Source of the DNA: a bacterium
GTDB taxonomy: Bacteria; Electryoneota; Electryoneia; Electryoneales; Electryoneaceae
Assembly (NCBI GenBank): GCA_963675295.2
Contig: CAXXKJ010000002.1
Coordinates: 4,224,001-4,288,000 of the forward strand
Direction: 5' to 3'
DNA length: 64,000 nt
The translations under genes and the position numbers were made by a program. The first letter of the stretch is position 1, and the number at the start of each line of letters is the position of its first letter. The notes below the pieces were generated by a model, which was not told where the DNA came from, ran no database searches, and saw only the letters and a program-made list of their open reading frames with translations. Positions 5,886 to 45,393 of this stretch are shown here, piece after piece.

Positions 5886-6021
5886 GCACATGGAAGTTCG
5901 TTACAATTCAAGTATATCATTCCCGTTGTGGTGGCCGTACTTTCCTCCACGGTGGGTAATGTATTACGTTCCAGCTATCACAATTGTCCACCTGTGAATG
6001 GCAGTTTGAAAGGAGTCTGTC

Positions 6022-24740: not shown

Positions 24741-24776
24741 AACCGGGGACACGTTCTTGCGAACATGTCCCCGGTT
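24741..24776. repeat. GGGGACAC-family palindrome, copy 3
   Basis: aaccggggacacgttc-ttgc-gaacatgtccccggtt between convergent genes. Confidence 0.8.
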
Positions 24777-24816: not shown

Positions 24817-26826
24817 TTACTTCATCAGCATCATCTTACGGGTAGCGGAGAATTCACCGGCGTTCAGCTGGTAGAAATACAGACCGCTGGCGAGGTTCGC
24901 CCCGTCAAAGGTGAGGCTCTGGTGACCGGCAGCCATCTGGCCGTTCTTCAGCGTCATGACCTGCTGGCCGGCGACGTTGTAGACGGTCAGGGTGACATCC
25001 GCCGCGTGCGGCAGCGTGAAGTCAATCTGCGTGGTCGGGTTGAACGGGTTCGGATAGTTCTGATCGAGGCTGAACTCGAGCGGCTGCGTCGCGGTCGGTT
25101 CACCAACCGTGGTCGCGCCGAACCAGTTGATCACGTTGCCCATCAGGGTGCCAAACTGCGGCGTGATGAACGGCCAGTCCGGGTTGGTCCAGTCAAGGGT
25201 ATACTCGATGTCGAAGCCGAGGAAAATAGTCTTGCCGTCCCAGGCGTTCACATATCGAAGACCATTGACATAACCGAGGTCCGCACCTTCAAAGATGGTT
25301 TCGGTTTCGGACACGCCGGTCATCGCTTCCGGGTAGCTCTGATCCGTGGTCTCAAACAGGATCTGGTACGGATCGTCAGCAAAATCGTTGCTGATCGGAT
25401 CATCCGGGATGCCATAGAACAGGGTGTCACCCGGAATGTCGATATCGTTGCGGCCTTCCTGGATACCGAACACATCGTACGCGAAATCACCAGCCGAGAA
25501 GCTGGGTTCTTCCGGTTCGTCATTCGCGAAGAAGTAGTCCTGGTCGGCGTAGAACATGTTGCCGCCGGCCATCAGGTACGGGACATATGCGTTGCCGGTG
25601 TAGTCACGGGTCGGGACAGAGCCCGCGCCCCAGCCAACGACGATCAAGGCGTTCCAGTCCGACTCAGCGATCAGGTACTCATCAATGCCCTTGTTGTCGT
25701 CGACATCGTAGAACGCGTAGTAAATACCGGCGTTCACGAGCGCATGACGCATCTCGTACGTGAAGTTCGACTGGTGGTCGATGAACAGGATGTCAGCATC
25801 CAGACCCGCCAACTCGATGATGTCGAAATTCATCTGGCTGTCTTCGTTGCTGTTTTCCTGGCCTTCATCGTCGACGGCCCAGATCCAATAGCTGATCATG
25901 TCACCGACTTCATTGTCAAGCGTGAAGGTGGCGTCGAAAATGCCGTCCTCATCCGGGTCGGTCATTTCGTACTGAGTCGGAGCGCCACCGTTCACCGAGA
26001 CATTCAGCATCGCCTGGTGATCATCGGTCCAGCCGGCATCGTCGAAGATGTCGCACGTGACGGTGCATTCCTTCGAACCGTTGACCGTGTTCGGCAGCTG
26101 GTTCATGTTGCCAATGATCGGCGGGGCGCCGAGCGGGTAGGATACACCGACACGCATGGCGAGGTCGACGACCGGGGAGCTGGAACCGTACGCACCCCAG
26201 GTTTCATCATAGGTGTCCATCCACGGACCACCGAACCAGGTGTAGGTAAAGCCACGGGAGGAAATGTTGTCCGCGAGCGGCTGCGGCATGCCGTCATCCT
26301 GGGTCTTGACCCAGCCGACGATGAACGCGCGGCCGTCGTCAATCCAGATCGCTTCGCCGTTGAACAGCTCTTCCTGTTCAAACAGGTACTCACCCCAGTC
26401 GCCCTCACCGTTGCTCAACTTGTTGAACGGGCCGAACAGGGCTTCACCCAACGGGCTGACCGGCGAGGTACCACGCAGCGGAGCGCGGCCATCCGCATAC
26501 ATCGCGGCGCAATCCGGGTTGTATTCCCAGACGAACGACTGGAAGTTACCCGCAGTGTACCACTGCTGTTCCGCGAAGTGCACCGAGCACGGAGCGAGCG
26601 GCTGGAAGTGCACGCACATGGTGTCACCCAGCGAGCCGGAGCTGAGGTAGTAGTCGGTCGTACCATCGCTCATGCGATTCAGGAACAAACCTTCCCACTC
26701 ATCCAACTCGGGGCCGTTCAGGCCCTTCGTTACTTTCGTTGGCTCGAGCAGGTGGATGTCAGTTGCCCACGCCGCCCCAACGGCGATCAGCAGCGCCATG
26801 CTCACCAATACCAAACGTTTCAACAT
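24817..26826 (-). CDS. Secreted T9SS-CTD protein of unknown function, last gene of TBDR operon
   Basis: Signal peptide, LDQNYPNPFNP...SGLYFY...RKMMLMK; paralog of 39934-42288. Confidence 0.85.
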   Translation of the reverse strand: MLKRLVLVSMALLIAVGAAWATDIHLLEPTKVTKGLNGPELDEWEGLFLNRMSDGTTDYYLSSGSLGDTMCVHFQPLAPCSVHFAEQQWYTAGNFQSFVWEYNPDCAAMYADGRAPLRGTSPVSPLGEALFGPFNKLSNGEGDWGEYLFEQEELFNGEAIWIDDGRAFIVGWVKTQDDGMPQPLADNISSRGFTYTWFGGPWMDTYDETWGAYGSSSPVVDLAMRVGVSYPLGAPPIIGNMNQLPNTVNGSKECTVTCDIFDDAGWTDDHQAMLNVSVNGGAPTQYEMTDPDEDGIFDATFTLDNEVGDMISYWIWAVDDEGQENSNEDSQMNFDIIELAGLDADILFIDHQSNFTYEMRHALVNAGIYYAFYDVDDNKGIDEYLIAESDWNALIVVGWGAGSVPTRDYTGNAYVPYLMAGGNMFYADQDYFFANDEPEEPSFSAGDFAYDVFGIQEGRNDIDIPGDTLFYGIPDDPISNDFADDPYQILFETTDQSYPEAMTGVSETETIFEGADLGYVNGLRYVNAWDGKTIFLGFDIEYTLDWTNPDWPFITPQFGTLMGNVINWFGATTVGEPTATQPLEFSLDQNYPNPFNPTTQIDFTLPHAADVTLTVYNVAGQQVMTLKNGQMAAGHQSLTFDGANLASGLYFYQLNAGEFSATRKMMLMK

Positions 26827-26894
26827 ACTTCACCCCTTTCGTTGTACGACGTGATGTTACCATCACGACTTCCGAAAACTACTTCCGTTGCTTG

Positions 26895-27824
26895 TTACTG
26901 TAACTCGTTCAACTTTTCCTGCAGTTGGATCAGGAATTCCCCGAAGTTCACCGCGTAGTAGTAGGTGACAACGTACGAATCCCCTTCTGCAGGAATTGGA
27001 TTTCCTTTGAAACGAACAGCGTCTCCAGTGACATCGTATCCAGTGATCTCGAAAGTAATGTCATCCTGCATGACAGAAACAGGATAAACAAGATTTACGT
27101 TCGAGAGATCGAGTTGTGCGATACCGTCAAGGTGCGTTTTCTGCAGCAATGTGACTTCAACCGCCTCATCGGGAACTTCGACGATCGCCCCCGAATTCTC
27201 CAGGGACGGGATAAACGCGTTGTCGTCAACATCATCCAGCACCACCATCACCTCGCCGTACTCACCCTGGCCGTACCAGGCCATCGCCTCCAGCAACTTG
27301 ACCGTGTCCATGTCAAAATTCGGCAGCCAGCGATGGGTCGGGTTGGCCATGTCCGCCCAATACTCCTGCGCATTTTGTGCTTCTTCGACGGCCATCTCGT
27401 AGTCCTGAGTGCTCAGGGCCACGCTCGCCTTGCCTGCGCAGGCTTCCGCAAACAGAGCGTCCACGTCCCCGGCTTCCACCTCGCCGGTTTCGATCAGCAC
27501 CGCGCCCAACGTCAGCACGTTGGACAGGTTTCGTTGCGCGCTGATCGGTTCCCGTGAATCGGCGAACGCATACCCGAGCCCGAGATACGCCTCGAGGTTG
27601 CTGGATTCGGCGTTTGCGGCATCCGCGAACATGTTGAGGGCCTCGTCCACCTCACCATCGTTCAAATACTCCCAACCCCGTTCGATCATCAGATCGACGG
27701 TCACGGCCGGGCCGGTCGGGATATCGTCGCTTTCGGTTGAACAACCTACCACCATGAACAGGGCGGTCAACAGGAGCCCGGCGGTCAGGATGCGCAAGGT
27801 CAGCCGATGAAAATTGGTCTGCAT
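26895..27824 (-). CDS. TPR-containing lipoprotein
   Basis: Lipobox VVGC, TPR-like helices (GWEYL, AYLGLGYA); ggagg RBS before MQTNF. Confidence 0.8.
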   Translation of the reverse strand: MQTNFHRLTLRILTAGLLLTALFMVVGCSTESDDIPTGPAVTVDLMIERGWEYLNDGEVDEALNMFADAANAESSNLEAYLGLGYAFADSREPISAQRNLSNVLTLGAVLIETGEVEAGDVDALFAEACAGKASVALSTQDYEMAVEEAQNAQEYWADMANPTHRWLPNFDMDTVKLLEAMAWYGQGEYGEVMVVLDDVDDNAFIPSLENSGAIVEVPDEAVEVTLLQKTHLDGIAQLDLSNVNLVYPVSVMQDDITFEITGYDVTGDAVRFKGNPIPAEGDSYVVTYYYAVNFGEFLIQLQEKLNELQ

Positions 27825-27849
27825 TGTATGATCCTCCATCCGGGGCTGG

Positions 27850-30800
27850 TTACTTCACCAACACCATTTTACGGGTCTTGTTGAATCCCGGCGCATCCAT
27901 GCGCACGAAGTAGACGCCCGACGCGATCGGCGTGCCAGCCGCACTCTGTCCATTGAAATGGAACTTGTGCGTACCATACGCCAGGTCACCGTCGAACAGA
28001 CGCGTCACTTCGCGGCCCAACACGTCGTACACCGCCAGCGTCACCGGACCGGTTTGCGGCAGCGCGATCTTGATCGTAGTGCTCGGGTTGAACGGGTTCG
28101 GATAGTTCTGCCCCAGCTCGAAGCTGTTCGGAACCATCAGGTCGTCCGGGACGTCACCCAGCGGACCAGCCATCACGGCATACGTGCCGGTCTGGCCAAC
28201 ACGCACCGTGATCAGGCCAACTGCCGGGTTGGCTTCGCCACCGACATACACCCACTCATCGTTGCGCATCAGGTACACACCGGCGTCCTGTTCACCGGCG
28301 GCGTCCACGTCATACGGAATCCGCAAGGTCAGCGGATCACCGACCTTCTCGATGTGGTTGCCGATGCTGTAGCGGCTGCTGACCGGCGTCCGTCCATCCG
28401 TATTCTGGATGAACTTGCCCAGGCCGACCGACGCCACGTCCGGCGAGCGGACAAGCATCAGGTCCTTGTCGCGATCGAAGCTGCGTGCGGTCGAACTCAC
28501 CTGGAATCCATCGCTCAGTTTCACCATCGACGGGCCACCGCCTTCGAAGGTGGACATCACGATGATTGTCGGATCGGATTCCACAACCGGGACACCGTTC
28601 GAATAATACCCTTCAAGCGCCCAGTGCATTTCGCCGACATCCGTCATCGTGACATGTGCGACGTACTGATCGAAGCGACCAGTTGCGTTCTCGACCGAAG
28701 TCATCTCGAAATCATCAGGTGAATCGTACGTGGCGATCACTTCCGTCATGTCCGCATCGGCATACACGTTCACCGTCGGTGCAGAAACTCCGTCAGAACG
28801 GTACAGCGGCTGTTCGGTAATCACGTACACATCGAGCATCGTTTCGATCACCGGGTTCTGCACCACGAACAGGCGGCTGAATTCCGCGGCATTCTGCTGA
28901 TGATGCACGAGGAAGTCACCACCCGCACCCGCCGCGATCAGGAAGAAGGTCGGGAAGGTAGCTTCCGGATCGTCAGCGCCACCCAGCACCCATCCATCGC
29001 CGGGGCTGATCGGCACGACACCGACGTTCAGATCGCCCTCGAGTTCGATTTCCTGGGTCAGAATCGGCAACGCGCTGAGGTTGTTGTCAACCTCGGTCGC
29101 CTGCATGTTGACTTTCCGGAATGCGATATCGGTCGCGCCCTCACCAGCAAAGACAACCAGATTGTCGTTGACCGGATCCAACGCATTGTTCAACGTGGTT
29201 GCGGTGTAGCCGGTGAAGAAGTAGTCGAAGCCCCATTCCGTGTTGGTCCGCTGATACGGCGCACGGTCGGGACCGGCCGACGTCTTCCAGCGCATTGGAC
29301 CACCGCGAATCGCGGCTTGCGTGTTGATGTTCTCGAACATGAACCGGTTGTGATCGTCTTCGGAGTACGATGTGTCAATCAGGTTCGCGGTTGCGAAGTC
29401 GAGGAACACATCGACCACATCCAGATCCTTCTGCCAAGCCTCAAGCTGTTCGTTGCGGTCGGACAACGCATCCGCGACGCCATAAATATCAATGTGCGGA
29501 GACATCGAAATGGCAGTCAGCATATCGTCGCCACCATACTTCTCCCACAGGTACAGCATGTACATGAAGACATGCTTGTAATCCACGCGGGAAGACAGGT
29601 CGGACCCGATGAAGGTCAGGATGTTGCCGCCCGTCAGACCCCGGGTTTCGGAATCACCGTAGTACCGCGGATGACGGAAGGTGTAGAACTCAGTGAAATA
29701 CGCCAGGCCGTACTTGACCCAGTTGACCTCAAACTTGTCGACCTTGTAGCTGACGTACTGAGTGTACACATTGGCAATGGCGGACAAACCGGCTTCATCC
29801 AGTTCGTCCATGTCGTCCTCTTCCCAGACCTCGTCGTTATCGTTCCAGATCCAGGCATCATCCCCCGTGTTGTAGCTCTGCGGGTAACTGTCAAGAACGA
29901 TCAGCTCCGCTTCGTTGGAGTACTCATCGGTGCTGTTGCCCGGAAGGTCACTCGGCAAGAAATAGCCGTGCTTCCAGAAGCCTGCGTCACCGTCGTTACG
30001 TCCGACACCGTATTCATCCCAGATATCCGTCAACAGGATGATGATCTGCTCCGGAATCTTGTCCGCACGTTCGCCGCCAATCAGGTCGTCAATGGCAGCC
30101 TTGGCACCCATGTCCGGGAGTTTCGGTGTCCGCGTCTCAAAGAACGTTACTGCGCTGTCAAGCTCGGACTTGCGCAGCGGGGTCACCAGCGGATGTTCAA
30201 CCGACTTGCCTTCCCGCAGGTAGAACGGATCGTACGGCAGGCCCCACTGATCGTTGGCGACATACCACAACGCCCCTGGACTGACCTCGCGCAGTGATGC
30301 CTGCACGATGCGCGGCAGCGTCGGGAACGCTTCATGGCTGCGGATGTAGAATTCGCGACCAAAACCGAGGACCAGCACCGATTCGTACAGTTCGTTCGCG
30401 GTGGTATCGCCGTCCATCAAACCTGTTTGTTCAACACACGGAATGCCATCGGCCGTGGTGATAAATCCTTCGCTGAAGTCAAGTATCAGGTCTGTCCGGT
30501 CGGCCTGATCAATATCCTTGATCGCCGAAACATCCGTATCGCTCAAGTACAGCGAGATGCGATTCGGTTCGCTGGCTTCGAACGATTCCGGCGCACCGAT
30601 CGCGATACCGTTCAGCTGCATTTTGGTCAGGTCGACGTTTTCCGCCGGAACGGTTCCGTTTGTGCCGATCACAAACCGTCCGTGGACCTCATCAAACCAG
30701 ACATACTCAATCAGCGGCGGGTTCGGGTCGGCAATGTAGTTGAAGTCTTCGACTTCGATGTAGCGGTTGCCGTTCAGCTTGGAGGACTGTTTAACCGTGT

Positions 30801-32436
30801 ACGGTTCGATCACCATGCGTAGCGTGCTGGTGTCGATGGTGTTCTCCAGCGCGTACTGGTCTTCTTCGCTGATGGTGATCGAGAATCCCTTGTTGCCGCC
30901 TACGCGCTCCAGTTCGCCATCGGTCAGAGTGACGGTATCGTCATCAGCCGAGATGAAGTGAATTCCCTCGAACACGACTTCCGCGTCCAGGCGAACGTCG
31001 AACAGGAGGTATAGCTCGTTGGCATCAGCGTCGTAGTACGGCAGGTCCTCTTCATCAAGTTCCGGACCCTTGTTGCGGTCCTCGGCAATGATGGTCAGCG
31101 GAACACCGTCCGCCATATTGCCGTTACCGCCGGCGCTCAGCACGGTCGCGGAACGGACATACACCTGGAACTCGAGATTGGCTCCGGTATCACCAGCACC
31201 GTCACCATTCTGGTCAATCAGGTCTTCGGTGGCATGCGCGGTGCCAACACCCATCAGAACCGTCAGGCTGGAATCGGAATCCGCCAGGCCGGCGAGGCCG
31301 GACTCCAGCGCGTACGAATAGGTGGAATCGGGTTCGATGCGCTGAATCGACAGTTTCGGGACAACCGCGTAGTCCTTGACATTGGAAGCGAGCTTCTGGT
31401 TGAACTTCACCTTCAGCTCGTTGGACCCCATGTCATATTCGGCCCACTGCGGAAACAGCGTCGCCGGGTCCTGCGTAAACTCAACAGCAAAATCTTCGAC
31501 CGGCACCGCCGGGTTGTAGTCCACATCCACGAATGTATAGTCCGTGAACCGGATCATCATCGTCCCGGTGTCCAACGCTTCCACGGTCGCGCGTTCGGCC
31601 GGCAGCAACTGCAGCTGCAGCACGTCGGAATCCATCCTGGTCAGGTCCGCTGCGCTTGAAAGGGTCACGAGGGTGTTGTTCGCGTCGTACAGGGTGATCT
31701 GCGGAACAACAACATTGGCTTCAAAGTCAAGCACGCCGTTGCCGTTGCGGTCTTCGTTCTCACCACCGGTCAGCACACCGTCCCCCGGCGCCGGCCAGTT
31801 CTTGTTGTAAGGGTCCTGCGTGGCCACATCTTCCGGAATCTGGTCGAACTGCATCACCTTGTTGAAGCTCAGGGTCAGCGTGTTCGACGCGGCATCGTAT
31901 TCGGCGTCTGTGAGGTTAACCTCATCGTTGGAAGGAACTTCCACATATGTGAGGTCGATCCAGGTACCTTCCGACAGATTGCCCTGCGGATCGCTGGCCA
32001 TCCCGGCCGGGCACCACATCCGCATGTGATCGAAGGTCATGTGGTCCAGCTCTTCCTCGATCACCATCAGGTCATCGTAGTCCAGACCCCAGAGCTGGCG
32101 ATCTTCGCTGGATGTGCCGTCATCGTAGACGTATTCACCGATGACGCCTTCGAAGTAAGGGTGGAATCTGACTTCCCTGGGCGTGCTTCCGTCCATCACG
32201 ATCCCGCCGCGCAACTCAAAATCGCTCAGCGGTCCGCCCATATCGTCGTCGATCGTGATCCCGGTGACGACAAATGCATCGGGGTCGACGTCCACAGTGG
32301 AGCTGAACGTCACGGAAAATGAATTTGTCAACTCGTCGTAGGTTGCGGCGGTTGGCACAGGTTGCGCCAAGAGCAGCGGCGCGGCCAACAGCAGCAGGAC
32401 CGGAACCCACACGAGTGCATGTCTCAGTCGTAGCAT
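27850..32436 (-). CDS. Very large secreted protein: about five Ig-like repeats, degenerate zincin-like domain, T9SS CTD
   Basis: Repeats A.YD...N.L...F; GYF...D...YSN......D; ANVYTQY where HExxH expected; LGQNYPNPFNP...RKMVLVK. Confidence 0.8.
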   Translation of the reverse strand: MLRLRHALVWVPVLLLLAAPLLLAQPVPTAATYDELTNSFSVTFSSTVDVDPDAFVVTGITIDDDMGGPLSDFELRGGIVMDGSTPREVRFHPYFEGVIGEYVYDDGTSSEDRQLWGLDYDDLMVIEEELDHMTFDHMRMWCPAGMASDPQGNLSEGTWIDLTYVEVPSNDEVNLTDAEYDAASNTLTLSFNKVMQFDQIPEDVATQDPYNKNWPAPGDGVLTGGENEDRNGNGVLDFEANVVVPQITLYDANNTLVTLSSAADLTRMDSDVLQLQLLPAERATVEALDTGTMMIRFTDYTFVDVDYNPAVPVEDFAVEFTQDPATLFPQWAEYDMGSNELKVKFNQKLASNVKDYAVVPKLSIQRIEPDSTYSYALESGLAGLADSDSSLTVLMGVGTAHATEDLIDQNGDGAGDTGANLEFQVYVRSATVLSAGGNGNMADGVPLTIIAEDRNKGPELDEEDLPYYDADANELYLLFDVRLDAEVVFEGIHFISADDDTVTLTDGELERVGGNKGFSITISEEDQYALENTIDTSTLRMVIEPYTVKQSSKLNGNRYIEVEDFNYIADPNPPLIEYVWFDEVHGRFVIGTNGTVPAENVDLTKMQLNGIAIGAPESFEASEPNRISLYLSDTDVSAIKDIDQADRTDLILDFSEGFITTADGIPCVEQTGLMDGDTTANELYESVLVLGFGREFYIRSHEAFPTLPRIVQASLREVSPGALWYVANDQWGLPYDPFYLREGKSVEHPLVTPLRKSELDSAVTFFETRTPKLPDMGAKAAIDDLIGGERADKIPEQIIILLTDIWDEYGVGRNDGDAGFWKHGYFLPSDLPGNSTDEYSNEAELIVLDSYPQSYNTGDDAWIWNDNDEVWEEDDMDELDEAGLSAIANVYTQYVSYKVDKFEVNWVKYGLAYFTEFYTFRHPRYYGDSETRGLTGGNILTFIGSDLSSRVDYKHVFMYMLYLWEKYGGDDMLTAISMSPHIDIYGVADALSDRNEQLEAWQKDLDVVDVFLDFATANLIDTSYSEDDHNRFMFENINTQAAIRGGPMRWKTSAGPDRAPYQRTNTEWGFDYFFTGYTATTLNNALDPVNDNLVVFAGEGATDIAFRKVNMQATEVDNNLSALPILTQEIELEGDLNVGVVPISPGDGWVLGGADDPEATFPTFFLIAAGAGGDFLVHHQQNAAEFSRLFVVQNPVIETMLDVYVITEQPLYRSDGVSAPTVNVYADADMTEVIATYDSPDDFEMTSVENATGRFDQYVAHVTMTDVGEMHWALEGYYSNGVPVVESDPTIIVMSTFEGGGPSMVKLSDGFQVSSTARSFDRDKDLMLVRSPDVASVGLGKFIQNTDGRTPVSSRYSIGNHIEKVGDPLTLRIPYDVDAAGEQDAGVYLMRNDEWVYVGGEANPAVGLITVRVGQTGTYAVMAGPLGDVPDDLMVPNSFELGQNYPNPFNPSTTIKIALPQTGPVTLAVYDVLGREVTRLFDGDLAYGTHKFHFNGQSAAGTPIASGVYFVRMDAPGFNKTRKMVLVK

Positions 32437-32480
32437 CGAAAATCCTCCTGACTCTGTCTCATCCTCCATCGGGGATGGGA

Positions 32481-33461
32481 TCAGAACGAGAACGAGATGT
32501 TGAACCGGTGCACATCCTCGAGAATACCGTACTCACTGAACGCGTAGTCAATTCCGATCCGCTGCCACAGGAAGCCGACACCCGCGGACATGCCGAGGGT
32601 ATCGTGGCGGAACGTGTAGCCGCCGCGGAGGAAGAACAGTTCCTGGAAGCCGTATTCGGCGCCCAGGTTCACGCGTTCAACGTTGTCGTTCGGATGCTCG
32701 AGGTCACCCGCGAGGGTCAGCCGGTGCTGATCAGTGTTCAATGGGTCCATCGCGACACCAAGGCGGAAGACCATCGGGAAATGGTAGGGCAGAAACTCCG
32801 TTGCTTCCGTCGCCTGGGAACCGTTGTCGAAGTCGTAGTAGCCGCCATCCAGCTGCATTTCCGGACCGAAATTGCGCACCGCCATGGCGAGCCGGACCGA
32901 GTTCCACTGGGTGTCGTACATGACGCCGACGTCAATCGCGAAGTTCGACGCGACTTCGGTGTCGAGATCTTCGCGTACGTACTTCAGGTTCGTTCCGAAG
33001 GAGAATTTGTCGGTCAGCTTCATACCGAGTGATACGCCGCCGACGATGTTGGTTACGTTGAAGGTTTCACCGGTACCCATCGGTTGCTGCACCGTGGTCA
33101 CCTCCATGTCGCCCGAGCCCATCGCGAGGGCAAAGGCGCCGATGGTGAAGGTGTCGTTGAGCCTGTGGGCGCCGCCGATCGCGTCATAGCTGATCTCGGC
33201 GAAATACTCCACATGCTCGAACATCACCGATGAACCGCCGAGCTGTGTTATGCCCGCCGGGTTCCAGAACATGGCGGACTGGTCGTTACTGATGGCGGAG
33301 AATGCGCCACCCATGCCGACCCCTCGCGCGCCGATAGGCAGCTTGAGGAAGTCAGCCCCGGTGGTGCCGACTTTTGCAAATTCAGCGTGGGCGCCGCCAG
33401 CAGCGACGAGCAGGGCGATCAGCACCGCCAAGCCCAGCTGATATACCGTTCGTCTATTCAT
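32481..33461 (-). CDS. PorV/PorQ-like (UPF0164) outer-membrane beta-barrel
   Basis: GTTGADFLK...GARG.GMGGAF, FWNPAG, LRGGY, DYAF, terminal F. Confidence 0.88.
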   Translation of the reverse strand: MNRRTVYQLGLAVLIALLVAAGGAHAEFAKVGTTGADFLKLPIGARGVGMGGAFSAISNDQSAMFWNPAGITQLGGSSVMFEHVEYFAEISYDAIGGAHRLNDTFTIGAFALAMGSGDMEVTTVQQPMGTGETFNVTNIVGGVSLGMKLTDKFSFGTNLKYVREDLDTEVASNFAIDVGVMYDTQWNSVRLAMAVRNFGPEMQLDGGYYDFDNGSQATEATEFLPYHFPMVFRLGVAMDPLNTDQHRLTLAGDLEHPNDNVERVNLGAEYGFQELFFLRGGYTFRHDTLGMSAGVGFLWQRIGIDYAFSEYGILEDVHRFNISFSF

Positions 33462-33483
33462 GATCGAACTCCTTGTGCCGAGG

Positions 33484-36018
33484 TCAGCGGATGATCAGAA
33501 ACTTCCCGACTTTCTTCTCGTAACTGGGCGACTCCGTCTCAACGACGTAGATGTACAGCCCCGATACGACTTTCTGGTTGTTCCTGCTGATCAAATCCCA
33601 GTAGACCGCACCGATCGTTCCGTCATCCTTGTAGATCTCCTTGATCAGATCGCCATTCAACGTGAAAATGCTGATCTTGCACAGGGAAGGCAGGTTGATG
33701 AAACTGATCTGGTCTTCGTACCGCGCTTCAAACGAAGCGGTACCCTTGTAGGGATTCGGGACGACCTTGATGTCGTCCATCGTCAGGTCGCTGTCCGGCT
33801 CGTTGGGATCGTCCGCCGGTGTGTCAATCGGCAGTACCCCGGGGATCACCGCCTGCGGTGCACCGTCCAGATCCTTGCGGTAGTTCGACTTTGCGGATTC
33901 AATCGACGGCAGCCCGAACGTGTCCATCTTGTCCGGATCGTACGCGACAACAGTGTAGTAGTACTTCAGTCCGTTGACCGGCCGTTCGATGTCCTTGAAG
34001 ATGATCGTGCCGTTCTTATCGGCAAAATCGCCGCCATAATCCTCATACGTATATGTCAGGTCCGGCAGGTCGACCGGGATGTAGTTCCAGTCCGTACCCT
34101 GCACGTTGTTCTCGTCCCCGACGATCTCAGCGTATTCGGGTTCGTTGTAGGCGTACTGGGAACCGTCGAATTCGATCGGGTTGAGCGTGTCACCTTCCGT
34201 GTTCATCAGGTAGGTGTCACCCTCACTGGGCATATCGAATGCCGCGATCATGTCCCAGGTCTGCGGGTTGTACTTCGAGCGGTAGATCTTGTACCCGAGA
34301 AAGTCGGTGGTACCGAGGAAGCTGTCGATGGCATCTTCCGCGCTGTCATCCCAGACCAGCTTCACGCCGGCGTCCAGCGCACTGTAGTGCAGGTCCGGAA
34401 TCGCGGGCGGAATCGGCAGCAGGAAGTGCCGGTCCGTGCGAATCATTGCGTCGCTGGTGCCGGTGAATCCTGTCTGGTTGGCGAATGCGTCGCTCGGCGG
34501 AATTTCCGGGTCACCGATTTCGGCCAACTCACCCTGGTAGTAGGCGACGAGAGCGTTGTCGATGTTCTCGCGCAAGCCCTGGATACCCCAGCCAACACCT
34601 GTCACCGCGACGAACTTCTTTGTTTCGCCGTCCGCGAAGCTGTGCGGACCGCTGGAGATGATGTAACGATAGTCGAACACCGGTGCGCCGGCGCCGTAGT
34701 CGAACGGATGCGGCATGAAGCGCTGACCGGCGGACAGTGTGTGCGTACCGGTCATGTACTCATACTTTTCCCGGTCTGAACCCGGGTCGGATTCCCAGTT
34801 CCACCACTGATGGGAATAGGGACGATGTGGCGGATCCCACTCGTCTTCCGGCACACGGTTCTTACTCGCCAGGTAGGGTTCGTCCGGGATGTAGAGGAAT
34901 TTGGTCCCGATGAAGCCGGCCACCGGCGGGTTCATGCTACGTTCACCAACGTCAATCTCGCCGGATTGCGGGTAGTCGCCGTCGTACATGTAGCTCATGT
35001 CACGCGGGATCAGGTACCCGCGCAGGGAATCTCCAGCCGCCGTAACCACAGGCTCTCCGGCGACATAACCTTTGTCGGGAACGCTGACCTGGTAACGGAT
35101 GTAGTCCGGAATGTCGTAGCCGGCTTCAACGTACACCGCCGGATCCACGACGTAAATCTGGTATTCATCCCAGATGCCGTCCGGTTCCGGATTGTCGTCC
35201 GCCGGAGCTTCTTCACCGGCTGCCGGTGAATAACCGTTCCAGAACGGGTTGCGTGGGTCGGCCTTCGCCCAGCCCCAGTAGTCGTAGCCGGTTTCTTCGT
35301 TGCCGTCCAGATCCAGCGGGTCAACCCAGTCATATTGGTACGCGTTCTGGCCTTGCGGCGCCCAGCCGTCATAGTCGACAAGGTCGTCGATCGCAGGTTG
35401 ATCTGGATCGTAGTGCGCGCCCACGTCATTATCGTAGACGAACGACACGAACACATTATTCAGCTGGCCACCGCTGACGTTTTCGACTTCGATCAGTTTG
35501 ATGAAGAAGTCGTCGTAGTCAGTCAACGACCAGGCGAGTGTGCGTTGGTGGATTTTCAGGCCGATCGGGGTGTGGCCACCGATTTCGGCATTGAGGTCGT
35601 CGAAGTGGGACAACCCGTCCTGAATCGACTTCGGGCCGGTTCCGAAATAGAAGCTGGACCCATCAGTCGGATCGAGCTCGTAGTTGCCGTAGTCGGCGTG
35701 GCTGACGAGCGGTTCGCCACCAACCAGCGCTCCGACCCAGAAACGGCCTTCCCAGATGTAGTAGACGCCGGACCCGCCGGGCCACTCACCCGAAGGCAGC
35801 AGCTCGTTGGGTTCGCCGTAGTTACCGAAGTTGGAAACAGCGGTCCAGAAGTTGCCGACATCATGCACCTTGTATTCTGTCGGCGGACGGGCAGCGGTTC
35901 TCCGCGGACCCTTCTTCGGACCGGTCATGTCAATGCGCGCGGCAAAGCTGGAGCTCGCGGCCAGCAGGCAGGCGAGTAGCACCAGCAACACCGTCGTCAG
36001 GATGTGGTTTCTTCTCAC
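33484..36018 (-). CDS. Secreted TBDR/PorV-partner protein with FN3-like region and variant CTD
   Basis: Signal peptide, SGEWPGGSG..Y, V.L.WD..AE, F.GYKIYRS, NG..YYY.V.AYD, IKVVPNPY...F.NLP...WDL...SGLYIY...GKF.IIR. Confidence 0.8.
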   Translation of the reverse strand: MRRNHILTTVLLVLLACLLAASSSFAARIDMTGPKKGPRRTAARPPTEYKVHDVGNFWTAVSNFGNYGEPNELLPSGEWPGGSGVYYIWEGRFWVGALVGGEPLVSHADYGNYELDPTDGSSFYFGTGPKSIQDGLSHFDDLNAEIGGHTPIGLKIHQRTLAWSLTDYDDFFIKLIEVENVSGGQLNNVFVSFVYDNDVGAHYDPDQPAIDDLVDYDGWAPQGQNAYQYDWVDPLDLDGNEETGYDYWGWAKADPRNPFWNGYSPAAGEEAPADDNPEPDGIWDEYQIYVVDPAVYVEAGYDIPDYIRYQVSVPDKGYVAGEPVVTAAGDSLRGYLIPRDMSYMYDGDYPQSGEIDVGERSMNPPVAGFIGTKFLYIPDEPYLASKNRVPEDEWDPPHRPYSHQWWNWESDPGSDREKYEYMTGTHTLSAGQRFMPHPFDYGAGAPVFDYRYIISSGPHSFADGETKKFVAVTGVGWGIQGLRENIDNALVAYYQGELAEIGDPEIPPSDAFANQTGFTGTSDAMIRTDRHFLLPIPPAIPDLHYSALDAGVKLVWDDSAEDAIDSFLGTTDFLGYKIYRSKYNPQTWDMIAAFDMPSEGDTYLMNTEGDTLNPIEFDGSQYAYNEPEYAEIVGDENNVQGTDWNYIPVDLPDLTYTYEDYGGDFADKNGTIIFKDIERPVNGLKYYYTVVAYDPDKMDTFGLPSIESAKSNYRKDLDGAPQAVIPGVLPIDTPADDPNEPDSDLTMDDIKVVPNPYKGTASFEARYEDQISFINLPSLCKISIFTLNGDLIKEIYKDDGTIGAVYWDLISRNNQKVVSGLYIYVVETESPSYEKKVGKFLIIR

Positions 36019-36041
36019 GGTGATGTATCCTCCTGCCTCGT

Positions 36042-39000
36042 TTAAAACTCGATTCCCGCGCCAACCTGCAGCATGCGACCGCGCTGGTAATACCGCGGAT
36101 CGTTATACTTCCCGTCGACGTCGTTGAACTGTTCGTACCAACCGGTGTCAGCATTCGCCTGGAAGAACCGCTGGTCGATGTTTTCACGATCGAGCAGGTT
36201 GTAGACCTGCACAAACGCGTACACGTTCAACGACTTCCAGATGCCCCACTCCTTCTGCACACGTGCGTCGAAGGTGAGCGTGTAGGGCAGGCGCTGATCG
36301 TTGATCGGCGGATCCAGCGAGCGGGCCGGGCTCGAATAGGGCAGGCCGCTGCCGTACTTCCCGATCAGGTTGATCGACAGACCATCGAAGTAGGACACAC
36401 CGAGGATGTCGGAATCCTGCGGTACAAAGAACTGGATGTTGCCGTAAATCGTGTGGCGCTGATCCCAGTCAAGGTAGGATTCCGTGGTCCGGATCAAGTT
36501 CCCGGCCCAGGCGTTTTCGTAGTTCTGGCGCGCTTCGGACGCCTTACCCTTGGCCACCGAGTAGGTGTACGACAGGCTACCGCTGGTGAAGTTGCTGAAG
36601 CGCTTGCTGAGGCTCATCTCGAAACCACGGACGTTTCCGTAGTCCTGGTTGATGTACAGACCGTACCAGTTGCGCGCGGTGAAGAACACCTGCCGCGTGT
36701 CAACCAGGCCGCTGATGTCCTTGTAGAAACCGGTGGCGACAAACACGACGTCATCGGTAAACTGGTGACGCAGCGTCAACTCGTACGAGGTCGTCCGTTC
36801 CGGTTCGAGGTTCGGGTTACCGACAATCGGGAACGCACCGGAGAAGTCCCAGTTGACGTTGGTGAACGCATAGCGCAGCAGCGGCACCTGGAAGTTCCGG
36901 CTGTAGTTGAAGCTCAACTGATCCCGTTCCGTGATCGGGAAGGCAACACCGAGACGCGGGCCCCAGTAAGTCTTTCCTTCAACCTTTGTCGGGTCTGCAA
37001 CCTCACCGCCGAGCGACGGGTCGGTCACCGGGTTGGTGATGTCGGACGGATAATCATCCCAGTTCACGTCGAAGTAGTCCGCACGCAAACCGAGGTTCAG
37101 TACCATCCCCTCGAACTCCATCTTGTCTTCCACGAACGCACCGTACAGGCGCGGCGACGCCGTGAAGTTCTGGCCGTACACGTTACCACCGGAGGCCATG
37201 TCCACATCGTGGTCGAACAGTTCGTAGAACGTCAGCTCGAAACCGGCCTTCACTTCGTGGAACTGGTGCATCTGGCTCGTGATGTGTCCCTTGAACGTGT
37301 AGGTTTCCTTGCTGTCGTTGTTCCAGCGGGACCGGTTGTAGGTCGTGCCGGTGCCGTAGGTGTAGAAGTCGTTGTCGTCCTTGCTGTTACCGAACGGCAT
37401 ATCTTCCCACCCCAGCCACGTGTCCCGCGGACCGGACTGGGACGCGTCGACGTAGCCGTCGTCATCTTCATCCGTCATCAGGTCGTGGGTCGGACCGTAC
37501 ACATCCCAGTCCCAGATCTCGTTGCCGTTGATGTCCTCGTACTCCCAGACACCATTCTGGTTGTAGTCGAACCAGTACTGGGTACCGTCGGCGTTCGATT
37601 CAAGCACGTCACGATACGTGTTCAACAGATCGTCGGGAATCTCCTCGATTGAACTGTAGGCCTGTTCCAGGTCGAGCTGGCCATTGCCGTTCGCATCTTC
37701 GTTGATGTATTCCCGCGTGTTGTAGTGCATCTCCGTCTTGTAGTAGGAGAAGCCCAGTTCGAAGTAGGTCCGTTCACTGATCGTCTGGTCCCACTTGGCG
37801 CTGAACTGGTTGATGTGCTGTTCGAAGTACGGCAGGTGATCAAGCATGCTGAAGCTGCTCAGGCTGCCGTCGCGGTTGAGGTCCTCGCTGTCGATGACAC
37901 CGTCACCGTCCAGATCCTCGCCGGCGTCCAGGACACCATTGCCGTTCAGGTCTTCGGTGTCCAGCTGGCCGTTGTTGTACCACGGCGAGTTGCTCGGATC
38001 GTAGTAGACGTAATCACTGGCAATCGTACCGTCGTCATTGTAGGACGGTGCGTAGCCATCGAGCCTGTCTTCATAATCCGTGCGGGACCACAGGTGGGTG
38101 TAGTTGGTCCAGTTGGAGTTGGTAACGTTTCCGCTAAGCGTGAACTTCTGCTTCGGCGTGGGGCTGTAGGTCAGCTTGCCGAACGCGCTGGTCATCGTGC
38201 TGTCATCGTTCACGAACCGGCCGCGCGTATCGTACCACTGTCCGGCGGCAAAGAAGTTCAGGTCACCAATGCGGTTGTCGAGCAACGGAATCGGACCGGA
38301 CAGCGCGAACTGCAGGTCTTTCATCTCGTCATCTTCGATACCGCCGTCATTGGTGCGGCCGAGGAACGACCCGGAGTAGCGTTCGCCACCTTCCTTCGTC
38401 ACCTGGCTGACAACACCGGAGAGGTTGTTACCGTACTGGGCCGACATACCGCCGGTAACGACGTTGACTTCCTCAAACGCCACCTGCGGGATGTAGCCTT
38501 CATAGTCACCCGTCATCGGGTCAACCATCGACGCGCCGTCCACGAGGTACAGCACTTCCTCCTCACGGCCGCCGCGGAAGTTGCCACCGACAGCGCCCGG
38601 CGTCAGACGGATCACCTCACGCACGTTCTCGACCGGCATCGCCTTGATGTCTTCCGAGGTACGCGTGGTGCGGCTGTCCGTCATGTCTGGCTGGATCAGG
38701 GGCTTTTCGGCAACGAAGACGACCTCTTCCCCGATCAGGGCTTCCGGGGTCATCTCGATGTCAATGGTGGTTGTCCGGCCTTCCGTGACGCGAACCTCGC
38801 GCACCGTCACCGGGCGGTAGCCGATGATCGAGGCCTTGATCTCGTAGGTTCCGGGCGGGACGTTCAGAATAACATAGCGGCCATCCAGATCGGTAGCCGC
38901 GCCGTGCCGCGTTCCATCGATGATGATGTTCACACCGATCAGCGGCTCACTGCTCTCGGTCCCGACAACCGTCCCGACAATCTTGCCCGGGGCGGCTTGT

Positions 39001-39071
39001 ACCACACCGGCCAACATGACCAGGAGTAGCAGGGTTGCGAGAACACTCCACAAACTGCGAGCATGGTTCAT
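36042..39071 (-). CDS. TonB-dependent receptor with N-terminal carboxypeptidase-regulatory-like domain
   Basis: GKI.G.V...EPL.G.N...GAATDLDG.Y, plug RGGR..E..Y.VDG, GG.SAQYG..SGVV, GNP.L.PE.T..YE, C-terminal IEF; start at MNHAR. Confidence 0.92.
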   Translation of the reverse strand: MNHARSLWSVLATLLLLVMLAGVVQAAPGKIVGTVVGTESSEPLIGVNIIIDGTRHGAATDLDGRYVILNVPPGTYEIKASIIGYRPVTVREVRVTEGRTTTIDIEMTPEALIGEEVVFVAEKPLIQPDMTDSRTTRTSEDIKAMPVENVREVIRLTPGAVGGNFRGGREEEVLYLVDGASMVDPMTGDYEGYIPQVAFEEVNVVTGGMSAQYGNNLSGVVSQVTKEGGERYSGSFLGRTNDGGIEDDEMKDLQFALSGPIPLLDNRIGDLNFFAAGQWYDTRGRFVNDDSTMTSAFGKLTYSPTPKQKFTLSGNVTNSNWTNYTHLWSRTDYEDRLDGYAPSYNDDGTIASDYVYYDPSNSPWYNNGQLDTEDLNGNGVLDAGEDLDGDGVIDSEDLNRDGSLSSFSMLDHLPYFEQHINQFSAKWDQTISERTYFELGFSYYKTEMHYNTREYINEDANGNGQLDLEQAYSSIEEIPDDLLNTYRDVLESNADGTQYWFDYNQNGVWEYEDINGNEIWDWDVYGPTHDLMTDEDDDGYVDASQSGPRDTWLGWEDMPFGNSKDDNDFYTYGTGTTYNRSRWNNDSKETYTFKGHITSQMHQFHEVKAGFELTFYELFDHDVDMASGGNVYGQNFTASPRLYGAFVEDKMEFEGMVLNLGLRADYFDVNWDDYPSDITNPVTDPSLGGEVADPTKVEGKTYWGPRLGVAFPITERDQLSFNYSRNFQVPLLRYAFTNVNWDFSGAFPIVGNPNLEPERTTSYELTLRHQFTDDVVFVATGFYKDISGLVDTRQVFFTARNWYGLYINQDYGNVRGFEMSLSKRFSNFTSGSLSYTYSVAKGKASEARQNYENAWAGNLIRTTESYLDWDQRHTIYGNIQFFVPQDSDILGVSYFDGLSINLIGKYGSGLPYSSPARSLDPPINDQRLPYTLTFDARVQKEWGIWKSLNVYAFVQVYNLLDRENIDQRFFQANADTGWYEQFNDVDGKYNDPRYYQRGRMLQVGAGIEF

Positions 39072-39880: not shown

Positions 39881-39908
39881 GCGTCCGGGGTAAAAATGCC
39901 CCGGACGC
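39881..39908 (-). terminator. Hairpin after stop of 39934 gene
   Basis: gcgtccggggta-aaaa-tgccccggacgc. Confidence 0.55.
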
Positions 39909-39933: not shown

Positions 39934-42288
39934 CTAGCGGATCAGCATCACCTTGCGCAGATGGTCCAGCTCTCCAGGTACCTGTGCCCGCACGAAATAC
40001 ACTCCGCTGGCCAGGTGTTGCGCGTCGAAGGTGAGCGAGTGAGTGCCTGCCGGCAACTCACCATCCGTCACTGTCGCCACTTGTTGACCGGCGACGTTAT
40101 ACGCCGTGACCGAAACTTGCGCCGCCCGTGGCAGGCTCAGAGTGAACGACGTGCTTGCGTTGAACGGATTCGGGAACGCCGCACTCATCCCGTAGTTCGT
40201 CGGCAGATCATTCGAGGCAACGGTTTCGTCCGGTCCATCAAACGCGGCTGTACCGTTCAGATCTTCCAGCCGCAGCGGACGCGAACCCTCCGCCGCGCCA
40301 TAGTGTTCCTTGAAGAACGTGAATTTGTCACCAAACTCCGGTGTGTAGAATTCACCGGCACGCATGGAGAAGGTGTAGTCCCCCTCGGGCGCATACCACG
40401 GGATCGCCTGCACCCGGTCGTTGCTGATCATCTCCATCCACGGCATGATGGTGAACGTGTCCTCCCACAAAGGTTCCCACACCGTCTGGTTCGGCGTCAG
40501 CAGGCGCGTCCAGAAATCCACGTCCGCGAATTCGGTGTCGGAAAGGTTCACCAATACGACGTCATACTTGACCAATCCGCCATTGCCGACGACATACGTG
40601 TCCCGCGGAATCAGATTCAGCCACACCGGCCCGATGAAGTCGATCACACCATCAATCAGCGTCGCGAGCTGCTGGTCGTCACCGCCGCCGAAAACCGCCG
40701 TTGCGTCGAACGCGAGGTACATCGTCTTGCCACGGTTCGGGATGTTGTAGCTGATCGCGTGTGGCAAGCCATGCGACGCCCCTTCAAAGAGGACGTGCGC
40801 ATCCGGACGTGGTACCAGCACATCTTCCCGCAGATTACCGAGGTCCGGGATGGTGTACGGTGACGTTTCGAACGGTTCAGTGAGCGTTCCGGCCATGCCG
40901 TAGAATTGCGTTTCTTCGTGCATCGGGTCGTTGCTGGCACCTGCCAGCCCGAGGAAATCGAAAGCAAAATCGCCCGATCCGAACGCTGTCTGCGCCGGTT
41001 CATCATTGGCCGCGAGGTAATCCTGGTCGATCAGCAGCAGGTTACCGCCCTGGATCAGGTAGCTGGAAAACGGATCATCCCCGGCAGTCCACTCACGGGT
41101 CGGGATGCTGTCGCCACCGTTTCCACTGACAATCACCAGGTGCCAGTCCATCTCCATCAGCCACGAATCGTAGCCCTTGTTCGCCTCGGCGTCCCACACG
41201 GTGGTGTTGTCCAGGCCCATCGACGCCAATAACGTGGTCAGGTTCGGGACATACTCGCCGCCGTCGTCAATGATCAGGATCGGGTTCAGCGGTACGTGGA
41301 CGATCTCGAACGATTTCCGGCGGTTGACGTTCCTGGTGGTGTTGCCCTCGACATCTTCCGCGACGATCCAGTAGATGAAGTTGTCGCCAATCTCGCCCCA
41401 GATGGTGTGCGTGCCTTCCCAGACGTGGTCTTCGTCCGGATCCGACAGCTCAACCGTCACCGGCAACGAACCGTTCTTGACCAGTTTCGCCCACACACGA
41501 TTGACGCCGTTGTTGTCGACCACGCGCGCGCGGAAGGTGCATGGCTTTCGTGGATTGGTCGTGTTCGGCAGCTGCTGCATGCCGAGGATCTGCGGGGGTT
41601 CAACGCCGAAATAATTCACCCCAACGCGTTGCATGATATCGACCACGGGTGCGCTGCTTCCATAGCCGCCCCATGGATGGTCATAATCATTCATCCATGG
41701 ACCGCCGAACCAGGTGAAGGTCGTACCGCGAGCAGAGATGTCATCGGCAAGCGGTTGCGGGTTGCCACCCTGCGATGATTTCACATACCCGACCATGAAA
41801 TCGTCAGCGTCCGGGTTCCAGATGCCGCCGCCCGGCAAGTCGCTCTGCTCAAAAAGGGGTTCCCAGACACCCAGTCCTTCGACGGTGCGAGAGATTGGTC
41901 CGGCGAGAACCTCGCCGATTGGGCTGACAGGGCTGGTGCCTCGTAACGGCGCGTTTCCGTTGGGATACATCGCTTCCGCTTCGGCACTGTAGTCCCAGAT
42001 GAAAATGTCGATACTGCCACCGGTGTTGAACATCGCTTCGGCGTACAGGATCGAACAGGCTGTCGCGGGGTTGTAGTGCACAGCGAACGTGTCATTGAGA
42101 TCGCCGGACGCCAGGTAGTAGTCAGCGTCCAAATCCGACATTCGCCACAGTTCGACGATCTCGTCAAGTTCGTCGAGACGCTGGTCCGCCGTCGTTTTCA
42201 GGTGGTTTGGCAACGGGATCAGATCCGTCGCCGAGGCAGGTGCGATCACCAGCATTGCCAACAACAGACACATCAGGTTCCGATTCAT
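39934..42288 (-). CDS. Secreted T9SS-CTD protein, paralog of 24817-26826
   Basis: Signal peptide, shared RGTSPVSP/PQPLAD/TWFGGPWM domain, PNPFN...RKVMLIR; aggag RBS before MNRNL. Confidence 0.85.
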   Translation of the reverse strand: MNRNLMCLLLAMLVIAPASATDLIPLPNHLKTTADQRLDELDEIVELWRMSDLDADYYLASGDLNDTFAVHYNPATACSILYAEAMFNTGGSIDIFIWDYSAEAEAMYPNGNAPLRGTSPVSPIGEVLAGPISRTVEGLGVWEPLFEQSDLPGGGIWNPDADDFMVGYVKSSQGGNPQPLADDISARGTTFTWFGGPWMNDYDHPWGGYGSSAPVVDIMQRVGVNYFGVEPPQILGMQQLPNTTNPRKPCTFRARVVDNNGVNRVWAKLVKNGSLPVTVELSDPDEDHVWEGTHTIWGEIGDNFIYWIVAEDVEGNTTRNVNRRKSFEIVHVPLNPILIIDDGGEYVPNLTTLLASMGLDNTTVWDAEANKGYDSWLMEMDWHLVIVSGNGGDSIPTREWTAGDDPFSSYLIQGGNLLLIDQDYLAANDEPAQTAFGSGDFAFDFLGLAGASNDPMHEETQFYGMAGTLTEPFETSPYTIPDLGNLREDVLVPRPDAHVLFEGASHGLPHAISYNIPNRGKTMYLAFDATAVFGGGDDQQLATLIDGVIDFIGPVWLNLIPRDTYVVGNGGLVKYDVVLVNLSDTEFADVDFWTRLLTPNQTVWEPLWEDTFTIMPWMEMISNDRVQAIPWYAPEGDYTFSMRAGEFYTPEFGDKFTFFKEHYGAAEGSRPLRLEDLNGTAAFDGPDETVASNDLPTNYGMSAAFPNPFNASTSFTLSLPRAAQVSVTAYNVAGQQVATVTDGELPAGTHSLTFDAQHLASGVYFVRAQVPGELDHLRKVMLIR

Positions 42289-42621
42289 GCTCCTCTCCCC
42301 GGTCAACCGTTTTGTTTCATCCATACCCAGCAGAAATATACGTATTAGAAGTTTAACATAGCGGTCCCCCGGTGCCGGAGCAACAAGATTTTCGGGGTCC
42401 CGGGGGCAGGTTGACGAGCCCACTGGACAAACACAAACCAGCCGTCAAAAAGTGGCTGGAGGCAGGAGAGAACAGGGACGTGTATTGGCATACACGCCCC
42501 CGAAATTCAAGTACCCGCCGCTAGATACCAGTTCCCAGGTACCGACTACCGATGATCGATGACTGCTAACCGGCCATCGAGTACCAACACCCTTTTCCAG
42601 CAGAAACGGGTACCAGCGGAA

Positions 42622-42653
42622 ACGGGGACACATTGTCCTCAATGTGTCCCCGT
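42622..42653. repeat. GGGGACAC-family palindrome, copy 4, flanked by 7-bp periodic sequence
   Basis: acggggacacattg-tcct-caatgtgtccccgt; catcactcacaactcatcactca adjacent. Confidence 0.8.
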
Positions 42654-42698
42654 CGAATCAGTTGCTCATCACTCACAACTCATCACTCATCGCTGTCC

Positions 42699-45005: not shown

Positions 45006-45393
45006 TTCAACATCCTCTATGCGAGTGGCACGGCTTTCCATGGTACCGGGATGGATACAACGCCATCCCAGCCTATGCAGTCAGTTCAGCGAGTCGTTTG
45101 CCGTGAACCCGGATCGCCAATCCTGGACCGGTAAGATACATGCGGTTGAAAAATAAGCTCAAGCGGCTCTCGAAATTTCCAAAAAAACTCAGAAGTGAGC
45201 GCAAACCGGAGGCAACTAACATAATCAACCGGTCTCCACCGCTGGTTCCAACACAAAAAGCTACCCCCGCCTCGGGAAAGACGGGGGTTCGGGAAAAAGG
45301 CTTGATGAAAGTCGCGCTTACCATCATCTGCCTGTTCGTGGTATGCGCGAACCCCGGAAAGGTTCCCGGGTTGGCTCCCTGAGAGCCTCTCGG

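Follow-up and report, generated by a model that had tools for sequence, protein, structure and literature searches.

The closest concepts in print to the operon described here are the SusCD utilisomes, the PorQ-PorZ and PorV-PorU pairs of P. gingivalis, and the carriers of type IX secretion system (T9SS) type B C-terminal domains (CTDs). According to the carrier-protein model, a CTD binds the extracellular loops of its carrier, and carrier proteins for special CTD classes are established (PMC10994853; this and the other papers are cited from the parts of their text that were available). In the type B system (SprB-SprF, Flavobacterium) a private carrier barrel both exports and anchors its CTD protein. 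PorZ and PorU are the two T9SS substrates with CTDs known to be retained; in P. gingivalis the retained PorZ CTD is bound to the PorQ barrel, and cognate PorV-like barrels are proposed to shield CTDs from cleavage (PMC10202324). In BamG-BamH, the extracellular loops of a 14-strand, FadL/PorV-like barrel keep hold of a surface protein (PMC12578637), and in BtuB-BtuG a TonB transporter is in stable complex with a surface partner that is not a SusD (PMC10404256). Here we describe an operon from a genome of the phylum Electryoneota, lying in a 64,000-nucleotide stretch of contig CAXXKJ010000002.1 (positions 4,224,001 to 4,288,000; the window), in which the genes for a TonB-dependent receptor, a secreted partner with a variant CTD (vCTD) and a PorV/PorQ-family barrel form a trio, or module. 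We predict that the partner is exported by the T9SS and held by its private carrier barrel beside the TonB transporter, in a manner analogous to SusD, and give this reading a probability of about 0.6. No description of a receptor/variant-CTD/PorV-family trio was found in the full-text literature, searched outside subscription journals.

An earlier note on this DNA, made from the letters alone, had described six tightly spaced, co-oriented genes. This was confirmed, coordinates included: all are on the minus strand, with intergenic gaps of 23, 22, 11, 10 and 68 nt. The first three encode the receptor (36042-39071, -; 1009 aa from an ATG at 39071, with a signal peptide, in an open frame that extends to 39230), the secreted partner p844 (33484-36018, -; 844 aa, no Pfam family in family scans) and the barrel (32481-33461, -; 326 aa). 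The variant-CTD gene is directly upstream of the barrel gene, as had been reported, the gap being 22 nt. A terminator-like hairpin with a 16-bp stem and a T run lies past the last gene (24741-24776, -), and another, which ends the upstream gene, sets the boundary of the transcription unit on its 5' side (39881-39908, -). Because these hairpins bracket the six genes, they look like one transcription unit. Evidence for expression is weak: in two metatranscriptome runs from one study, contigs of a relative that is ~91% identical span the greater part of the operon, with four gene junctions bridged, for which DNA carry-over is possible. A further RNA run, with 6 of 30 bins covered and these mostly at CTD repeats, was not counted as evidence of expression.

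The variant CTD occupies residues ~750-844 of p844 (33487-33771, -), as delimited by tail alignment and profile search, and follows the pattern VVPNPY...F.NLP..C.I.IFT..G....I......WDL.S......G.Y.Y.V.....GKF.VI[KR]. Only two models hit the final ~100 residues of the protein, those of PorZ (E 5e-8) and PorU (E 1e-6), each through its end. p844 is neither of these proteins: the PorZ model (NF052228) matches residues 746-844 only, with 31.8 bits against a cut-off of 260, and the structure model has no propeller, while the PorU sortase model (NF033707) matches the tail only, with 26.8 bits against 420, and there is no Peptidase_C25 match. At E 0.01 the tail matches neither type A (TIGR04183 or PF18962) nor type B (CHU_C, PF13585) models, and it has no match to a type A profile built from the same genome. 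A precomputed PF13585 label is found on one of 120 listed clusters of p844 homologues.

Six other proteins of the genome bear the same tail. A profile of the seven vCTD tails, run against open reading frames (ORFs) of the genome, matched 22 in all and scored its own members at 103-141 bits; type A tails, carried by ~416 ORFs, were missed or scored ≤ ~24 bits. Both the type A count and the vCTD census come from a crude ORF list and profiles of our own. This separation agrees with the claim of the earlier note that the CTD of the 844-aa protein differs from that of all other cargo. The next scores in the genome after the seven partners were those of a PorZ homologue (37.7 bits) and of PorU (24 bits). 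Against PDB sequences the profile found the tails of PorZ (5m11, E 6e-4) and PorU (6za2, E 0.007) and nothing else of note.

The barrel was assigned to the PorV/PorQ family by NF033709 (218.8 bits against a cut-off of 90, model positions 1-326), and its family profile matches F. johnsoniae PorV (6h3i_F, E 1.4e-26). It falls below the cut-offs of both equivalog models, PorQ (NF033711; 102.4 against 220 bits) and PorV (NF033710; 81.4 against 250 bits), and these scores lean towards PorQ. The description of the barrel as PorV-like therefore stands at the level of the PorV/PorQ family, and gives way in one respect: the pair is nearer to PorQ with PorZ than to PorV with type A cargo. Like PorQ-PorZ and PorV-PorU, the locus pairs a barrel of this family with a T9SS substrate, whose CTD may likewise be retained, and its tail is nearest by profile to those of PorZ and PorU. 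Unlike those pairs, it has a cargo body without propellers and without a C25 peptidase; it is multiplied, and is always joined to a TonB receptor in nutrient loci; and a PorU-PorV operon and a PorZ homologue are present separately in the genome. The type B system resembles it in co-encoding a special CTD class with a private carrier barrel, and differs in that the barrel here is PorV/PorQ (placed by NF033709 rather than by comparison with a PorP/SprF model), that the p844 tail has no CHU_C match and that the role proposed is uptake rather than that of motility adhesins.

The body of p844 was modelled with AlphaFold2 (AF2), using an alignment of 47 relatives, at a predicted local distance difference test (pLDDT) score of 84.7 and a predicted template modelling (pTM) score of 0.81. 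It consists of a beta supersandwich of the galactose-mutarotase-like/glucodextranase-N-domain type (residues ~47-520; 34459-35880, -), a short helical linker, a fibronectin type III (FN3)-like domain (residues ~540-700; 33919-34401, -) and the vCTD. Structure alignment (VIA-align) placed the glucodextranase N-domain first (1ulv_A, Z 19.6, root-mean-square deviation (rmsd) 2.8, 242 residues aligned), followed by bacterial glucoamylase (1lf6_A, Z 19.1), the N-domains of phosphorylases of glycoside hydrolase (GH) families GH94 and GH65 (Z 15-18) and mutarotases (Z 12-13.5). The FN3-like region was recognized from Foldseek matches to FN3 tandems and is common to all seven paralogous partners by BLAST. 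Foldseek groups the C-terminal part of p844 with FN3 tandems, PorU and PorZ.

Small partners of the p844 type and large ones of ~1100-1230 aa are members of a single family along almost all of their length (hhalign probability 100%, E 6e-50, 594 columns), and so represent a conserved scaffold with variable inserts, like SusD, and not unrelated enzymes. At E ≤ 0.001 p844 has 201 relatives, every one of which either lacks a name or goes by 'T9SS type A sorting domain-containing protein'. Among the 120 listed, 119 carry no precomputed Pfam domain, and the family profile found nothing at E 1 among PDB sequences. The role of a lid, suggested by the earlier note, found no support; p844 is a beta-rich multidomain protein and not a helical cap like SusD. 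That the partner is an enzyme was considered and is rejected for now: the model contains no catalytic (alpha/alpha)6 domain after the supersandwich, and there is no peptidase motif. The first ~200 residues of p844 recur in three further proteins of the genome (phmmer E 1e-16 to 1e-43; C2:1864061-1868991 and C2:3209241-3211040), which were not matched by the vCTD profile; the supersandwich scaffold therefore exists outside the trio too.

The receptor has CarboxypepD_reg, Plug (PF07715, E 8.7e-8) and TonB barrel (PF00593, E 2.9e-24) domains in a Pfam scan, and a TonB-box-like EEVVFVA, read by eye, ahead of the plug. It is outside the SusC/RagA family, since TIGR04056 gives 61.1 bits against a cut-off of 368.25 and covers residues 30-153 only. 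An insert of ~170 residues (residues 374-542; 37450-37960, -) contains five DxNxNGxxD calcium-loop-like motifs of the thrombospondin-type-3 or dockerin-like kind. Similar motifs are seen in the 1539-aa protein of the same operon (residues 240 and 419), and DGIDNDGDG runs appear in the alignment consensus of the large paralogous partners. The earlier note had seen no SusD-like lipoprotein beside the receptor, and this extends well beyond the operon. SusD Pfam families were not matched on the six operon proteins or on 31 other proteins of the window, and PF07980 and PF14322 were not matched in the genome (92.8% complete), while the control, B. thetaiotaomicron, was matched.

When receptor, p844 and barrel were used in turn as queries against the genome, each returned the same seven loci. 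Exactly seven receptors form a separate clade (1095-1324 bits in a genome profile search; next receptor 210), as do exactly seven barrels (439-511 bits; the canonical PorV after PorU 151), and there are exactly seven vCTD proteins, giving 7:7:7. The three genes are close together in six of the seven loci. In the seventh the partner is ~5.9 kb upstream of the receptor, which is followed directly by the barrel. Pfam matches among the neighbours point to substrates: starch for module M2 (the carbohydrate-binding module (CBM) CBM20, two GH13 amylases and the debranching-type enzyme GDE), galactan for M5 (a SurA-like chaperone, two GH53 and GH2) and N-glycans or glycoproteins for M6 (GH38, PNGase F, GH20 and an S8 peptidase). 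One further module is beside an alkaline phosphatase, and type A CTD proteins flank all these loci. They are uptake loci built like polysaccharide utilization loci (PULs), without SusD.

The likeness to SusC/SusD (RagA/RagB) is one of plan. In both, a TonB transporter with an N-terminal CarboxypepD_reg domain is found beside a dedicated partner, and the pair is multiplied within a genome (seven times here). Some of the copies here are also set among substrate-specific enzymes and CBM proteins, with accessory surface proteins that would take the part of SusE/F/G. The components differ. The partner here is beta-rich, of 800-1200 aa and with a T9SS tail, whereas SusD is a helical, TPR-like (tetratricopeptide repeat-like) lipoprotein; a third gene, for the barrel, is obligatory; the receptor scores 61 against 368 bits on the SusC/RagA model; and surface exposure would come via the T9SS and not by lipoprotein export. 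BamG-BamH and BtuB-BtuG, which are likened to the trio by description only and not by sequence, have partners that are lipoproteins without T9SS tails.

The trio is inherited as a unit; it is found in almost all genomes of the phylum and in many further lineages of the Fibrobacterota-Chlorobiota-Bacteroidota (FCB) group, often inside loci of glycan- or peptide-degrading enzymes. In Electryoneota the vCTD is present in 78 of 79 genomes, including all of the high-quality ones (51/51), and p844 orthologues are present in 27 of the 79. The six-gene order is kept in 7/7 relatives fetched, down to 48% p844 identity. When GTDB species genomes were scanned with a three-row tail alignment, at least 595 stretches matched the vCTD tail, 574 of which were confirmed by tblastn. 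Eighty loci were kept, and are biased towards the M2/M3/M5-type tail rather than being an unbiased sample. Judged by record title, they come from Neomarinimicrobiota, KSB1/Zhuqueibacter, Calditrichota, Ignavibacteriales (including the isolate Rosettibacter primus), Stahlbacteria, Rhodothermales and unclassified FCB bacteria.

In these 80 loci a module-type barrel lies within 1.5 kb downstream of 74 of the 84 vCTD genes that could be judged. The order is receptor, partner, barrel for 48 of the 55 vCTD genes with both flanks and receptor, barrel, partner for five; the last two share one Rhodothermales locus with a receptor and a barrel. Conservation of gene order, which the earlier note had proposed as a check, is therefore seen both for the six genes within the phylum and for the trio in other phyla. 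A scan of the flanks of 17 other-phyla loci (81 of 224 listed flank ORFs) recognized GH or CBM genes in seven, peptidases or amidases in four and nothing in six. Flanking genes included GH2; GH18 and NamZ; GH26, CBM9 and CBM96; GH130 and ABC sugar-binding proteins; and CBM20 and GH13.

Receptor, vCTD and barrel have diversified together (Mantel r 0.80-0.87 for 66 triplets of related, non-independent sequences), which shows inheritance as a unit and not contact. Partial correlations are positive for all pairs, including vCTD-receptor (0.60 given the barrel) and vCTD-barrel (0.24 given the receptor); this difference is not safely interpretable because the sequences are related to one another. 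If the barrel were a dedicated carrier and nothing more, the partner would pass SprA and then be released or linked to lipopolysaccharide (LPS), acting as an ordinary binding protein or enzyme without a stable complex. Such a secretion-only role equally explains the strict linkage of partner and barrel; carriers for special CTD classes have precedent (PMC10994853), and the low vCTD-barrel partial correlation is in keeping with it. However, the special-clade receptor is linked as tightly as the barrel, being in the cluster for 55/55 vCTD genes with both flanks and matching it 7:7:7 in the genome. One conserved scaffold runs through all partners, and the tail resembles the two CTDs known to be retained. 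We therefore regard a carrier-only barrel as unlikely, if still a serious alternative.

The genome has T9SS components of its own elsewhere. SprA (830 bits) is at C2:2310196-2316711, PorU (709 bits), followed by a PorV-family barrel, at C2:892737-897098 and a PorZ homologue (211 bits, NF052228) at C2:3025891-3028230. Gene order and a core T9SS were the points on which the earlier note had staked its proposal and that were run, and both came out in favour, the second for these components and not for the motor (see below).

These separate copies bear on the idea that the locus is a device for export or attachment, in which the receptor-like barrel is directed outwards, in the manner of Oar with PopC in Myxococcus (PMC6434023), or the partner and barrel form a PorU/PorZ-like processing station for neighbouring type A cargo. 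The CarboxypepD_reg N-domain of the receptor is typical of Oar-like proteins, type A CTD genes flank most modules, and tail and barrel resemble parts of the attachment complex. A canonical PorU-PorV operon and a PorZ homologue already exist, however, the partner has neither a C25 peptidase domain nor a propeller, and import fits the contents of the same loci, which include glycosidases of the periplasm or cytoplasm and, outside this phylum, ABC sugar-binding proteins. An outward-working device is accordingly improbable. It is hardly credible that the barrel is a FadL-type channel that by itself takes up a small product of hydrophobic or amphipathic nature and shares no more than its regulation with the receptor, because its weak Pfam matches to Toluene_X/FadL (E 1.3e-5) and UPF0164 are far exceeded by those to PorV/PorQ (218.8 bits; PorV 6h3i, E 1.4e-26), it follows the vCTD gene within 1.5 kb in 74/84 cases and its count in the genome equals that of vCTD proteins.

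In the preferred reading, that of a T9SS-exported partner held beside the transporter, the partner would cross the outer membrane through SprA, its tail bound to the loops of the private barrel as in the carrier model. The vCTD would be recognized by this barrel, acting as T9SS carrier, and not by the general PorV. It would not be cut off by PorU and would stay on the outer loops of the barrel, as the PorZ tail does on PorQ; with the tail not removed, the partner would be anchored at the cell surface by the barrel, and may there capture substrate and pass it to the adjacent TonB transporter, a job equal to that which falls in Bacteroidia to SusD and to glycan-binding lipoproteins of the surface. 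The operon's type A CTD proteins, one an M30-like pseudo-peptidase with Ig repeats and the other of 669 aa, could form an outer layer of capture or processing.

Several observations weigh against this reading. Retention of the CTD is suggested by likeness to PorZ and PorU, at modest scores of 24-38 bits. The fold shared with sugar-active proteins does not by itself demonstrate sugar binding by the partner, and the partial correlation of vCTD and barrel is weaker than that of vCTD and receptor (0.24 and 0.60, from non-independent sequences). The T9SS is incomplete as found: GldL, GldM (TIGR03517) and GldN, equivalent to PorL, PorM and PorN, gave no match to the available models, which left the controls unmatched too, and GldK appeared in the genome only as sub-cut-off matches of FGE-sulfatase type. 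The T9SS motor and hub of this genome are either very divergent or different. In addition, the window's copy of the module has no recognisable glycoside hydrolase, family scans having found no CAZyme in the operon, and the protein encoded next to it has the look of an inactive peptidase. For the substrate of this copy our guess is a glycoprotein or a polymer that contains peptides.

A further point against it is that each of five other module-bearing genomes (5/5) has one to five SusD-family hits, so the module is not simply used where SusD is missing. A strict replacement of SusD by the module was rejected on these grounds. The alternative to SusCD proposed by the earlier note thus loses its strict form, and otherwise gains from the paralogous loci for starch, galactan and N-glycans and from the sugar-binding-type fold of the partner.

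A wider proposal can be made tentatively, with the balance slightly against it: that there is a third class of T9SS sorting domain, PorZ-like and retained, which together with private PorV/PorQ carriers builds lipoprotein-free 'utilisomes' on a separate TonB clade. These might be the main route of polymer capture and import in FCB phyla outside Bacteroidia (Marinimicrobia/Fidelibacterota, KSB1, Calditrichota, Ignavibacteria, Rhodothermia, Stahlbacteria and Electryoneota), and might be older than SusC/SusD or parallel to it, with PorQ-PorZ as one specialised member of a larger carrier-anchor family. If so, the idea of the T9SS carrier protein, applied to secretion and motility, would also come to cover how import machines are assembled, and a large, unexplained expansion of PorV/PorQ paralogues would gain a function.

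Models of uptake in FCB bacteria and the prediction of PULs rest on SusC/SusD pairs, so loci of this kind are invisible in abundant uncultured lineages, which include marine, sediment and hot-spring FCB bacteria. The genome paper of Melioribacter roseus labels Mros0761-0759 SusC, SusD and SusE (PMC3534657, available in part), and the available text of the Caldithrix paper (PMC5317091) makes no mention of the module. A three-gene marker, made up of the receptor clade, the tailed partner family and the barrel clade, would allow such loci to be mapped and their substrates to be predicted from flanking enzymes. A cultured carrier of the module exists in Rosettibacter primus.

The fourth gene of the operon encodes a type A CTD protein (27850-32469, -) with an open frame of 1539 aa, called as 1528 aa in public gene calls, and the sixth encodes another, of 669 aa (24817-26826, -). 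TIGR04183 scores 37.4 and 44.9 bits (E 8e-12 for the latter), respectively. The 1539-aa protein consists of Ig-like repeats, an M30-metallopeptidase-like domain, beta-sandwich domains and the type A CTD. The 'Ig-repeat' label of the earlier note is borne out by four N-terminal repeats of ~135-155 aa, each opening YD..N.L...F, at residues 44, 191, 345 and 479; self-BLAST of the protein found no repeats, which are visible only as a motif. An AF2 model of residues 640-1300 (pLDDT 75.8) revealed an M30 fold of the hyicolysin/lugdulysin type at residues ~700-1121 (29107-30372, -), with lugdulysin as the best structural match (7bb8_A, Z 22.8, rmsd 3.0, 307 of 360 residues aligned at 17% identity; next row Z 10.8). 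The HExxH zinc motif is absent from this protein and from all 18 aligned family members. The domain is accordingly likely to be a binding module that derives from a peptidase and lacks catalysis, or else an enzyme of an unusual kind. Against PDB sequences the protein had only FlgD-like matches, on the CTD. A DUF6055/Big_5 lead from a cluster look-up was below threshold (0.84) and was not used.

The body of the 669-aa protein belongs to no recognised family; a cluster look-up (Atlas) returned only unnamed CTD clusters, which were not used. Between the two CTD genes is that for a TPR lipoprotein (26895-27839, -; 314 aa, lipobox VVGC), recognized from weak TPR matches. Both the lipoprotein and the 669-aa protein are kept in 7/7 orthologous operons. 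TPR proteins recur beside modules elsewhere (L049:15760-17865, L067:35-1891 and L067:14193-16379). Those of the window's operon and of module M4 (L011:18708-19325) are small, and in KSB1-type loci the TPR proteins include a fused domain of GDSL-lipase-like type.

Two more type A CTD genes are directly upstream of the operon (39934-45041, -), encoding an 829-aa protein with an unknown body and a 780-aa protein that combines CarboxypepD_reg with a MAM domain like that of InhA (M6-peptidase type). Further upstream is a gene for an extracytoplasmic function (ECF) sigma factor (47960-48520). Elsewhere in the window, a cysteine peptidase of the gingipain/PorU type, separate from the canonical PorU, is encoded at 15187-20046 (+); its 1619 aa include Peptidase_C25 (E 1.5e-46), a NIDO-like stretch and a CTD of type A. 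Two adjoining FG-GAP repeat proteins with type A CTDs are encoded at 3993-7446 (+), and modules of other phyla, too, have FG-GAP/ASPIC CTD proteins at their flanks (loci L045, L049 and L068). A SurA-like chaperone with a double peptidyl-prolyl isomerase (PPIase) domain adjoins the receptor in one module of this genome (L012:1042-2817) and in five of the 17 other-phyla loci (L045, L049, L054, L059 and L067), and may be a dedicated periplasmic chaperone for the module.

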